A DNA stretch of 64,000 bases from Bispira polyomma (taxonomy: Eukaryota). Of the stretch, positions 259 through 12,200 are shown piece after piece. The notes under the pieces are model-generated. The model did not search any database, was not told the origin of the DNA, and worked only from the letters and a program-made list of their open reading frames with translations. Each line of letters starts with the position of its first letter. Within the stretch, counting starts at the first letter, position 1. The stretch is from NCBI GenBank assembly GCA_965649765.1, contig OZ287758.1, positions 5,828,001 to 5,892,000 of the forward strand. Reading direction: 5' to 3'. The position numbers were made by a program, and so were the translations under genes.

Positions 259-3200
259 GTGAGTGTGTGGCTGTGTATATGGCTGTGTGTGGCTGTGTGT
301 ATTGGTCTGTGTATGTATACATGTGTTTATCTGTAAGTGTGGCTGTGTGTATGGCTGTGTGAGGATGTATGGCTGTGTGTGTGGCTGTGTGTGTGGCTGT
401 GTGTATTGCTGTGTGTATGTATGCATGTGTTTATCTGTAAGTCTGGCTGTGTGTATGGCTGTGTGGGGATGTACGGCTGTGTGTGTGGCTGTGTGTGTGG
501 CTGTGTGTATTACTGTGTGTATGTATACATGTGTTTATCTGTGAGTGTGGCTGTGTGGGGATGTATGGCTGTATGGCCGTGTGTATGGTTGTGTGTGGCT
601 TTGTGTATGACGGCGGTTGAGAGCAGTCACGGCTCCATGTCAATGAATACGGTAAAAGTTCTATTATTTAAACTTATGTTCTCTTATAATATTGAATATT
701 ACAAACTGCCTGTCACTCTCGTATTCTCCTATTCCGCCTTCCATGTTCTACATCGTCTTTGAATTCTAGAGGTTTCCCTGGATTTGTTTTCACAGGATTG
801 GCTTGAACTCTTTCCCGAGTACCTCCAAAGACATGAAGCTGCTGAAGAAAATTGGCAAGGTGAGGAGTCTTGGTGTATATTTTATGTGTGCGACAGTGAA
901 CAACTGCGGCTGTGCTGAGAAAAAAAAAAAACAATCGAAAAAAATCAAAGAAATGGAAGAGATTAAGTGAGCGTTTCCATGCAGGCAACTTTCTGAGGCG
1001 ATCAGGCGACAGCCGACGGCGATTCTATCAGTTTCATTGATTTATAACCAAGTGTTTCCATGTGAGCAATGCCGATAGGCGACAGGCAATGCCAGGCGAT
1101 TTTTTTGGTACTAGGAGCGAAAAAAATCGCCTGGCATTGCCCGTCGCCTTGTAAACATTGCCGTTTTATTTAAATAACTCAAAAAATACTGAAGGTATAA
1201 ATTTTCTGAAAATATGGTGAAAAAGCTTATGTTATCGGGTATATTGTGCTTTTTGTTGCATCAAAATCGGTTGAGAAATGGCTGAGATATTCAGGTTTAA
1301 ATGCAGGTATCTATTTTCTCAAATAATTGTATAGAAACATAAAAATTGAAAATTGCCTGCTATACGTCGGCTGGTCGCCTCAGAAAGTTGCCTGCATGGA
1401 AACGCTCACTTAGGGTCTTGTTTTTTTTCCCAGGTCTCTCCAGGTCTTTTTTCTTCATTAATGTACGAATGAAATTTCCAAAACCAGTGTTTCATTGGCA
1501 GTTAAAAAAAAACCCGATGGGGGTGGGAATTGTTTTGCAACTATTGAACCAACTCCCTAACCAATAGGCCTAATGACCTAGTGGTTAGAAGCACCTGCAT
1601 CACAATCAGTGGCCTGTCACACCAAGTTTGAAATCCTGTTTGTTCCTCCATGTGGCAAAGTATGTCAGGTACTTGCTGTAGATGGGTGGTTTACACACTG
1701 TCAGTGTCTTTAGCATTGGTTTCTTCCACCTGGCTAAATCTGGCCATCGTGAAATGACCTAAGCTCTTAAAAGCATGATGTAATATTTAAATCCAATCAT
1801 CAGGCTATGAAAAAACCAGTATGATTGAAGTCGGAAGCCTTGAACACAAGTCTTAATTATGGTTACAATGGTATGAATAATGAAACTAAACCCGACTATA
1901 AACTTATCATGTCTTAGCTAGACGTAATTATGGTCGCTGTGGTATGAATACTTAAGGTAAACCTGACTATAAACTTAATGTGTGTTAACTAGACCTTATT
2001 ATGGTTGCTGTGGTATGAATACTTAAGCTAAACTAAACTATAAACTCAAAGTGTATGTTGCATTACAACAGGGTGTAAAGCTGAGCAGAGACGGGCTGGG
2101 GAACATCTACGCCACCCGCCTCTCAGACCACGACATCATCTGTAAAGGCTACAAGAACCCAGAGAATGCCTGCTTCGCCGCCGAGATCATAGAACACATG
2201 GGCAGGCTGCCCAAAGGCAAGGCAATGAAGGTAGCTGTAAACTCTGTTAAGTAGAATTGTGTTTATATAAAGGAAAGGCCATGAAGGCAGTAACCCTATT
2301 AAGTAGAACTCTGTTAAGTAAACTATGTTGTTAAGATAAGGGAAGGGAATGAAGGTAGTAACCCTGGGATGGGATGTATTGATTTGTCCATGTCTTATTA
2401 CAGCGTTATTATCAATAAGCCCTTCAAATCTGTTGTACAAGTCCCAACATGACCATCTTGTGTGCAGCCAATTTTAAATTACTCGGCCGATTCTTAAATA
2501 TTTCAGACCTACATGTACATTTCTAAGCTTAAGAAGACTAAGTTCAGACTGAAGGGCCTTACAGATGGCCATTGTGTCATTAGGTTGCCATATAAGTAAT
2601 ATGTAGCAAAAGTATTAGGGGGGGATGCATTCACACTCCAACATGTACTTCATATGGAATATATAGTGTGTCGTGGATGTGTGTATATGACTTCCGTGTA
2701 GTGACGTGTCGTCCCCTGTGGTGTATTGTCCAGTCATGTAGTCAGTGGTTTGTAAGGCCTTTTAAGACCTTTTTTCGAATGTAATCCCCTGCTATATATA
2801 TCCCTCTCTCTGCCTTCTCTCAGATCTTCTGTATAATAGAGTACAAGACTCGCATCACCCTGTGTATATATATATATATATATATATATCGGATCTTCTG
2901 TATGATGGAGTACAAGAGTCACATGACCCTGTATCTCTCTCTCTCTCTCTCACTCTCTCTCTCTCAGATCTTCTGTATAATGGAGTACAAGTCACATCAC
3001 CTTGTATATCTCTCTATCTGCTCTTAGATTTTCTGTATGATGGAGTACAAGAGTCACATCACCTTGTATATCTCTCTGTCTGCTCTTAGATTTTCTGTAT
3101 GATGGAGTACAAGAGTCACATCGCCCTAGAGTTACAAAGGGCCTCCATCGACCAGCGGAAGCTACAGTCACTGAGCATGCTCAGCTTTGCCTTTGTGCGG

Positions 3201-9200: not shown

Positions 9201-12200
9201 AAACAGTGATGAGTAGTGGTGTCATCACGAGCGACGATTACACACATTCACCGGTGATGATATGCCTGGGCGATAATCGGGAGTTTACAAATGTGCGCGA
9301 TGCATCTCGCACAAATAAAATAAAAAAATGTATATATACATTTGAAGCCCATGGATTAGAAAGTAAAATATTTTGCAATATATATTCTGTCATATATCAA
9401 CGAAACATCCCGAAAACAGCTTTGATCTATTCTAGCGTGTATATATCATGTGTATCATCGTTAGGAGTACCCCAAAGCACCAACTTCCATATAAGGATAT
9501 TTAACTTTGACTCGGCAGTAATCGCTCACATATATTACCTTATATCTGTTTTTCAATACTGTGGTTATATACAGTACACAGCAAGCATGAGTTACAGGTA
9601 TAAGTTATTTTATTTTATGTGACTGTAACTTATAGAAACTGTAGTTGGGGTTATGATTATTTAGAAACTTAACAAAATACTTTACTGTAAAGATCCATGT
9701 GCTTCAATGACGATAAATACCGCGATATCGCTCACGGTCCACTCCACGGCCTCGATTCGCAATATACACTGGCGATGACACCACTAGTGGTGAGTTGTCA
9801 TAGTTACAGTGTAAAGAGTGGCCACTTAATAAACAGATTGGTAAGGATTATACGAGAGATAGTTTGCTGTTTAGCATGATCCTAAGAGCTTTAGCATTGT
9901 GTATTCATACAGCAAATCTAAGATGGCTGCCCTGTCTAGTCTATATTCCTGAATCGTTCCACTTTATCTTGCATGCAAACCATATATTATCTATATACAG
10001 TAGAACCTCTATTATCTGAACATGTCGGGAGAGCATAGTAGAAATGTTAATAAAATAGAACGGTTCAGAAAATAAAACGGGCCATTCTCTGTAAAAAAAG
10101 ATAAAAAATTTGTGAATTTTAAAGAGTGAAAATATGTTCGTTAAATCTAATGTTCAGATAATAGTAGTTTGGATAATGTAGATTTCTCTTCTGTATGGGT
10201 AACTGATACAACTCCTACTGCAGTGCCTTATTAGAGGAGACAGGTCAGGCTCTTGCTCTAACTGTGGTGTCTTATTAGAGGAGACAGGCCGGGCTCTTGC
10301 TCTAACCTCAGTGCTTTGTTAAGGGAAACAGGCCGAGCTCTTACTCTAACTGTAGTGCCTTATTAGAGGAGACAGGCCAGGCTCTTGCTCTAACTACATT
10401 GCTTTATTAGAGGAGACAGGCCATGTTCTTGCTCTAACAGCAGTGTCCTTATTGGGGGCCACAGGTTGAGCTCTTGCTCTAACTGTGGTGTCTTATTAGA
10501 GGAGACAAGCTGGGCTCTTGTTCTAACTGTAGTGTCTTATTAGAGGAGACAGGCTGGGCTCTTGTTCTAACTGTAGTGTCTTATTAGAGGAGACAGGCTG
10601 GGCTCTTGCTCTAACTGTAGTGTCTTATTAGAGGAGACAGGCCGGGCTCTTGCTCTAACTGTAGTGTCTTATTAGAGGAGACAGGCCGGGCTCTTGTTCT
10701 AACTGTAGTGTCTTATTAGAGGAGACAGGCCGGGCTCTTGCTCTAACTGTGGTGTCTTATTAGAGGAGACAGGCCGGGCTCTTGTTCTAACTGTGGTGTC
10801 TTATTAGAGGAGACAGGCCGAGCTCTTGCTCTAATTACAGTGTCCTTTATATATTCAGAGTAAGGAATGTCAAATACGCCACTCTATCTGAAATTCGCAA
10901 CTTGACAAATGTGTATTGGAAGAATTTTGGGTAATTTTTTGCTGAAATTGAAGCCTCGCTTCCCTAAATTTCAGTTATATGTCAACAGTTTTTATAATTG
11001 ATTCGGCTTGAATTTTTTGGGGTAGAAAATTTCAGATACAGTGGTGAATGTTACTTTCCTTACTCTAATTACTTTCAACTTGAGGGAAGCTTTTGTGTTT
11101 GTTTTCATAACACCATTCTCTGATCTGCACTTTTACCCATGTTTCTCTGTTTAGTCCAATGAAACCTCTATTATCTGAATACTATGGGGGAGCAAGACGT
11201 TGTTTTGGATAACGAAAGGTCATAATGTCAAATGAACATTTTCTCTTTTTGGTATTTAAATCAAAATTGGTTTTGGGAGAGTTATACAGGTTGTAAAAGA
11301 AGTGTAATATCTGTATATAAGTACATTAAATATTCGGGCTTCCGGGGGGTCTTCCCTTTGGCTCAACTAGTAGTAAATGTGACTGTTATATACTCAAGAT
11401 TCGCAAGGTTCAAGGATCAAATTCTCAGCACAGCCAAGTTGCTTTAAAAGTTTACAGAAACAAATATTTTTACCACAAAGGTTTAGCTAATAGTAGGTTC
11501 CACTCTACTGATTCACCTGTTTGTATTTTCACCCTGCACATGGTGTTCAAATGTCCAGAGGATTCGGAAGAAAATCCCCCTAGCAACCGTAGTTCGGGTA
11601 ACCAGGAGTACTTGGCTGCCCTGGATCGGTTCAAGGACACTCTGGAAGAGAGTCCACTGGAAGGTAAGACATCTAGGCTACCCCAACCAATCCAATTCCA
11701 GGAGACAACCCAATGAACTAATCAGAATGGAACAAAGAATGCCCATCAACCAATCATTGTGAAAGATACAATGTCATCAGCCAATGAAAAGATGACACTG
11801 CAATTTTGAATCAGCCAATCACATTTTTATAAATTATAGTTTTATTAACCTATCACTTTGTTAAATTTCATTTTTAAGCAACTAAGAAACTGTTTACTAA
11901 CATTTTTTAATTTTTTTAATTTAGTTCATTGTTTCTTTAGTTTGTTCACTACAGGTTTTCTTTAGATGTAGCATGGAGTCTTGCCATATTAACATTTAAA
12001 CAAAATACTTTTGTGAACATATTTCTATATCTCCTGTATGCATGTTAAGAATTCTAGGTCATCCTTCATTCCGCCAAATATGCAATGTATGTGTACAGTT
12101 GTCTGCATGATTTACCCTTTCTCGAACTGGAGAACCACCTAAAAGAAACTATTTTCGTCATTCAAGAACTCTGCCTTGCGTATAATTTTTGAAATAAGTG

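Follow-up and report, generated by a model that had tools for sequence, protein, structure and literature searches.

Do exon-intron junctions attract tandem duplications, or do they merely preserve them? The question is raised by a 64,000-nucleotide stretch of the Bispira polyomma genome (GenBank assembly GCA_965649765.1, contig OZ287758.1, positions 5,828,001 to 5,892,000 of the forward strand; hereafter the window), in which a probable MH2-domain gene carries tandem arrays at several of its splice junctions. This gene comprises eight coding exons over 44-14681 on the plus strand, with GT-AG introns throughout and a single open frame of 318 amino acids. At 6 of its 14 junctions an array lies on the junction or at most 20 nt away, three of these arrays spanning the junction and three abutting it. 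They are read here, with a probability of roughly 0.55, as 'mirage' minisatellites, i.e. independent and non-functional duplications that would arise by slippage and unequal exchange and survive longer at exon edges. The term is the one used for amphioxus Adh3 and the globins BflGb6 and BflGb9, in which tandem units consist of an exon edge plus an intron edge (PMC3087553). The sequence basis throughout is one haplotype and the single 64-kb window.

A preliminary description of this DNA had held that at three junctions the junction is itself the repeat unit, present three times at donor 2231, five times at acceptor 3090 and about 25 times at donor 7841, and all three cases are confirmed:

2213..2365, plus strand: mirage array at donor 2231, three copies (2231, 2287 and 2355) at spacings of 56 and 68, with about 18 exon nt per unit.
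2784..3125, plus strand: mirage array at acceptor 3090, five copies (2824, 2893, 2968, 3028 and 3090) at spacings of 69, 75, 60 and 62, each unit holding about 33 exon nt.
7805..9213, plus strand: mirage array at donor 7841, about 24.7 copies with 98% identity of a 57-bp unit, 36 nt of which are exonic and 21 intronic.

At donor 2231, 17-18 exon bases recur in the copies (shuffle P=2e-4 each), and GT is present in two of the three, the copy at 2287 having GC. The acceptor 3090 array preserves AG in four of its five copies, and its pyrimidine tracts feature (TA)n and (TC)n expansions. In the 57-bp array the pattern matches, 25 in all, have GT throughout, and one more copy is degraded at the edge of an inserted element (see below). 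Along this array, differences from the exon copy number 0, 1 and 2, then 3-5, before falling to 2 at the far edge. The unit equals 19 codons, and the array is therefore crossed by a 615-codon open frame, which differs from the frame of the gene.

The remaining three junction arrays lie beside the junction:

257..609, plus strand: GT-rich array with a higher-order period of 104 bp, beginning at donor 259, with decoy donor hexamers (GTAAGT/GTGAGT) repeated at 333, 437 and 541.
1846..2069, plus strand: 71-bp array of about three copies, running up to acceptor 2072.
11684..11885, plus strand: decayed 31-34-bp array, beginning 20 nt past donor 11664, detected with relaxed settings of Tandem Repeats Finder (TRF).

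The arrays at donor 259 and acceptor 2072 had already been described as directly abutting their junctions, which they do. The end called by TRF for the 71-bp array is 2046, and the alignment goes on from there until a few nt short of the AG at 2071 (P=4e-4). Exon bases were sought within both arrays and rejected (P=0.38 for the GT-rich array and P=0.88 for the 71-bp array); none were seen in the decayed array, which is absent from the preliminary description. That three of the six junction arrays contain no exon bases suggests that proximity to a junction matters rather than the copying of splice signals. The earlier statement that several duplications unrelated in sequence sit on junctions stands; the units share no motif. 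A weak 22-bp repeat at 7619-7680 ends 57 nt before acceptor 7738, just beyond the 40-nt cut used in some of the tests below.

The far end of the 57-bp array is interrupted by a putative miniature inverted-repeat transposable element (MITE):

9214..9786, no strand assigned: MITE-like insertion of 573 bp, with 18-bp terminal inverted repeats (89% complementary) and an 8-bp target duplication (7/8 match).
9787..9846, plus strand: final unit of the 57-bp array, split off behind the MITE, with the array match at 9787-9836 followed by a donor-like GTAAGG at 9841.

The target duplication is centred on a decoy donor within the array. We take the element to be a putative hAT-type MITE, as the short terminal inverted repeats and 8-bp target duplication fit the features of that superfamily. 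The window holds no second copy of it, and its predicted folding is no more stable than that of shuffled sequences (z=-1.4). Homology in the last unit stops sharply at 9836-9846, at another strong donor-like site, GTAAGG, and the MITE inside the array shows an older seed beside a near-identical expansion. Another MITE-like element, with 47-bp inverted ends (96%), is located at 964-1412 in intron 2.

The exons between which these arrays lie are as follows:

44..258, plus strand: exon 1, MH2 (E=0.003, below the Pfam cut-off); the ATG at 44 is assumed, and the gene may continue upstream of the window.
796..859, plus strand: exon 2, with an array at neither junction.
2072..2230, plus strand: exon 3, MH2 (E=0.013, below the Pfam cut-off).
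3090..3282, plus strand: exon 4, C-terminal part of MH2.
6205..6269, plus strand: exon 5, with an array at neither junction.
7738..7840, plus strand: exon 6, tail, poorly conserved.
11559..11663, plus strand: exon 7, placed solely from frame and splice consensus.
14629..14681, plus strand: exon 8, the last coding exon, with a WAKL motif that P0007 and P0029 also have at their C-termini.

A search with exon 4 returned 141 relatives at E<=0.001. MH2 is present in all six relatives scanned, including P0007, P0016 and P0029 at E<1e-20, which align over exons 1-5. P0007 and P0016 cover five of the seven exon joins by gapless alignment. Of the five relatives compared, only P0029 aligns over the join at donor 7841 and none over the last one, so that both joins are placed from splice consensus and frame. 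In three of the six scanned relatives (P0016, P0029 and P0035) a myosin head is fused to MH2, and since the window begins 43 nt before the ATG, what it contains could be only the 3' part of a myosin-MH2 fusion. The gene may be Expansion/Rebuf-like.

Whether arrays are more frequent at junctions than their background density predicts depends on the null chosen. The junction set numbers 24, with 14 in the MH2 gene and 10 in two control genes (HCN, with three exons, and a C1q-domain gene on the minus strand), and 15 arrays with a period of at least 30, including a 143-bp array at 4804-5606, cover 10% of the window. All enrichment P values are post hoc and uncorrected, and they provide no clean test because the gene was picked for looking odd. 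Under a coverage null, 3 of the 24 junctions are hit against 2.4 expected (P=0.43), i.e. without enrichment. This null is given less weight, because it lets junctions fall in the middle of an array, which an intact exon forbids. Under a null that places one-unit seeds in collapsed coordinates, with the extents of the three spanning arrays set by hand, three hits compare with 0.30 expected in the window (P=0.003) and 0.51 in the gene (P=0.010); when arrays spanning a junction or lying within 30 nt of one are counted, five compare with 0.61 (window, P=2e-4) and 0.96 (gene, P=7e-4). A TRF-free, ungapped 28-nt test, which misses donor 2231 because its copies align only with gaps, detects 2 of 24 junctions, with P=0.65-0.71 by coverage and P=0.03 by an edge null. 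With relaxed TRF and circular shifts, a junction lies no more than 40 nt from the end of 6 of 46 arrays, where 2.4 are expected (P=0.026), and within the MH2 gene this is true of 6 of 10 arrays against 1.1 expected (a fraction of 0.109, for an enrichment of about 5.5-fold; P=2.4e-4).

The overlap rate, which the preliminary description had proposed to set against background array density, thus shows no excess in this window by coverage and an excess by the seed and edge nulls (P~0.003-0.03). A local excess of arrays at the junctions of the MH2 gene is likely. To that extent the 'gene-wide' pattern described earlier is a fair account of this gene, although a genome-wide rule is not borne out by the two control genes, in which none of the 10 junctions is hit. 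Only 0.65 hits were expected there, and Fisher tests give P=0.02 against 6/14 and P=0.18 against 3/14.

These same numbers leave some room for chance combined with post hoc selection, in which arrays would originate and persist uniformly and the MH2 gene would be the tail that any scan would pick out. Besides the coverage results and the empty control junctions, the sole out-of-sample test places one of the five remaining arrays at a junction (P=0.31), and a per-gene P of about 0.01 applied to an assumed ~10^4 multi-exon genes would yield about 100 such genes. However, uniform origin does not readily account for the concentration within the gene or for the circular-shift result, and the same pattern is found at several amphioxus loci (PMC3087553). 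Chance is considered a possible, though rather unlikely, explanation.

Several elements of the earlier interpretation call for correction on other grounds. That junction-spanning DNA is duplicated outward into introns had been put forward as an inference, but it is the geometric result of any duplication across one junction and needs no mechanism: the copy that is continuous with the exon (the first for a donor, the last for an acceptor) leaves the exon intact, so that the extra copies are intronic. Purifying selection against exon-internal arrays, which had been suggested as the cause of the excess, is already built into the null and yields no enrichment alone. The other suggested cause was splice-site-linked instability such as R-loops or pausing; R-loops predict a G-rich sense strand, and the six junction arrays show a mixed GC skew, from -0.29 to +0.65.

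This inconsistent skew also bears on the broader idea that exon-intron borders are mutational hot zones, in which spliceosome or polymerase pausing, R-loops, or nucleosome, methylation or GC steps would bias where duplications begin. A GC step does exist here (exons 51%, non-array intron 37%, and about 35% for the whole window), the left edge of the GT-rich array falls on donor 259, and the right edge of the 71-bp array falls a few nt from the acceptor AG. However, the absence of a common motif among the units and of hits in the control genes counts against the idea, and a biased origin is regarded as doubtful.

The preferred interpretation as mirages can be set out in four steps. Slippage or microhomology-mediated repair would often duplicate short segments of 50-100 bp in this repeat-rich genome, perhaps helped near junctions by low-complexity seeds such as the GT-rich donor flank or a TC tract. 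As a matter of sequence logic, selection purges a duplication inside an exon, whereas a segment that crosses just one junction can be duplicated with the exon left whole and the extra copies in the intron. Unequal exchange would then expand and homogenise the middle of the array while the edge units stay exon-like, a pattern that is seen, although the process behind it is conjectural. Finally, arrays at exon edges, with or without exon bases, would outlive those in intron interiors, because deletions that reach the exon or its splice signals are purged. This interpretation is supported by the agreement of the unit anatomy with the published mirages, the lack of exon bases in half of the junction arrays, the unrelated units of mixed skew, the homogenised middle, the older seed at the MITE, the early stops in all decoy models (see below), and the background-level density of non-junction arrays (0.14/kb in the MH2 gene and 0.16/kb in the rest of the window). 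A toy model in which deletions are confined to introns produces a 1.2-5.7-fold enrichment near junctions, a range that includes the observed value; its parameters are assumed, and it speaks to plausibility only.

Three points weigh against this interpretation. To match what is observed, the toy model needs deletion to be about 20-fold faster than point decay, and the position of the observed excess at the top of the neutral range is a further point for a biased origin. Nor is a greater age of the junction arrays evident (81-98% match, compared with 78-100% for the others). Lastly, a universal filter predicts hits in the control genes as well, and these have none, with the low expectation given above.

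The arrays multiply splice signals, which raises the question of whether they have a function or create new gene structure. The match to the U1 consensus is 6 of 9 positions at 7841, 7898 and 8012 alike, and 6 at decoy 333 compared with 5 at the true donor 259. As the decoy donors fit as well as the true ones, splice fidelity must come from context, probably from exon definition. Splicing would stay at the exon-continuous site, and in both amphioxus and human CBS it is reportedly the authentic site that prevails (PMC3087553, PMC2630376). Twelve decoy models were built, with two donors near 2231, the four acceptor copies upstream of 3090, four donors taken from the 57-bp array and two pseudo-exons, and all 12 are predicted from sequence to end in a premature stop, at 153-270 of 318 amino acids. 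Productive pseudo-exons were rejected as a candidate, since both 37-nt units tested stop at once; weak GT sites are also present inside the acceptor units.

An origin of the 57-bp unit as exon was considered as well, with a shifted donor and GTAAGG at 9841 as the original one. This candidate was likewise rejected, as the 21-nt intron part matches the upstream exon at 9 of 14 nt at best (P=0.15 by shuffling), and such an origin would require a 5-nt insertion. The units straddle existing junctions and are not wholly exonic. The age of intron 3, which has mirage arrays at both ends, was addressed among 142 relatives, of which 48 that start inside exon 4 were set aside and the very long P0025, P0037 and P0048 were dropped. 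The residue just before exon 4 is Q (CAG) in 37 of 45 genomic-ORF-like (open-reading-frame-like) relatives and in 1 of 46 spliced-like ones, a count that is not inflated by the partial use of a preceding K in defining the classes. The single spliced-like exception has a 17-residue in-frame insert at that join. The presence of Q in distant relatives indicates that the position of intron 3 is ancestral and older than its arrays. The position of intron 2 is shown by 1 of 17 relatives.

The suggestion that these duplications are a route to intron or exon gain therefore finds no support in this gene, given the ancestral intron 3, the early stops in every decoy model and the non-significant exonic match. 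A functional or creative role more generally, with arrays tuning expression through decoy splicing and decay or representing intermediates of intron or exon gain, would draw on the equal strength of decoy and true donors, on the prediction that decoy use past 7841 loses only the tail (270 of 318 amino acids) and keeps MH2, and on the repeat-driven intron gain documented elsewhere (PMC2812944, PMC3443670, PMC3265369). With those same three results against it, and with the GT..AG inside the 57-bp unit only 20 nt long, such a role appears very improbable.

The structure itself is already known, and the lophotrochozoan case extends it and is unusually dense. Amphioxus mirages occur at both 5' and 3' boundaries, with units from 10-72 bp (Adh3) to 150-160 bp; GT/AG is kept in many of the copies, though not in all, edge units escape homogenisation, and a role as an intron-gain route has been proposed (PMC3087553). 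The arrays described here are similar in having head-to-tail units of comparable size (57, 56-68 and 60-75 bp) and in keeping GT/AG in most copies, though not all. A boundary-spanning unit is found in three of the six (2231, 3090 and 7841), is lacking at 259 and 2072, and was not seen at 11684; a homogenised middle with edge units that escape this process is found in the 57-bp array only. They differ in their lophotrochozoan host, in the presence of three spanning and three abutting arrays in one gene, in the MITE inside one of them, and in being known from sequence alone. Two like cases in human CBS, 844ins68 and a 31-bp variable number tandem repeat (c.1444_1467+7), are polymorphic, have been tested at the RNA level and are fewer per gene (PMC2630376). 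In the Rogers model of intron gain, tandem duplication of a wholly exonic, AGGT-bearing segment creates a new intron (PMC3443670, PMC3265369, PMC2812944); that model likewise derives extra splice signals from tandem duplication, but here the units lie across junctions that already exist, and the position of intron 3 is ancestral. Human spl-TRs, repeats near splice sites that include (TG)n tracts and can alter splicing, are defined by a measured association between length and splicing, and the present arrays share with them the location of repeats near splice sites (PMC10078293). In the available portions of the open-licence literature, including PMC10078293, PMC12783039 and PMC4039745, no genome-wide test of mirages or of junction-spanning enrichment was found.

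Further features of the window lie mostly downstream of the MH2 gene. Copies of a dispersed repeat occupy 3974-5696 (intron 4) and 13275-14340 (intron 7), and fragments of it occur near 31200-32150. The 143-bp array represents an expansion within this repeat and is thus not a local birth. The C1q-domain gene (20058-32947, minus strand; Pfam C1q E=9e-22) has three exons and a secreted product; its last exon seems to be thrown out of frame by a long G run near 20440-20450, through sequencing error or because the gene is a pseudogene. A diverged local duplication of about 1 kb is located at 34748-35831 and 38605-39572 (66-82% identity). The HCN channel gene (42630-53505, plus strand) is represented by its last three coding exons only, the middle one with a GC donor at 52007. 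For the exon at 53078 the best named match is the annelid Dimorphilus (80%), with nemerteans and molluscs next, as befits a lophotrochozoan. No upstream HCN exons were found in the window on either strand; an HCN intron of more than 42 kb may enclose both the MH2 gene, which has the same orientation, and the C1q gene, or the assembly may be rearranged. An HCN intron also contains a retrotransposon (43926-50257, minus strand) with four long open reading frames and weak matches to reverse transcriptase, RNase H-like and integrase-SAM domains. Its split direct repeats are 96-99% identical and it looks recent; its layout resembles that of the tyrosine-recombinase Ngaro/PAT group.

Arrays of this kind can lead gene annotation and read mapping astray. 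They are also natural splice-site competition assays, with up to 24 near-identical decoy donors and three decoy acceptors within 270 nt, for all of which early stops are predicted, and the question of whether junctions attract arrays or merely preserve them can be tested cheaply in this genome. It seems improbable that, in this lophotrochozoan lineage, the exon-intron borders of some genes are true nucleation sites for tandem duplications of 50-100 bp, coupled to splicing or chromatin. If they were, thousands of duplicated splice sites would be present in the genome as natural reporters, mirages would be widespread among marine invertebrates and no peculiarity of amphioxus, and new exons or introns would be seeded by some of them.

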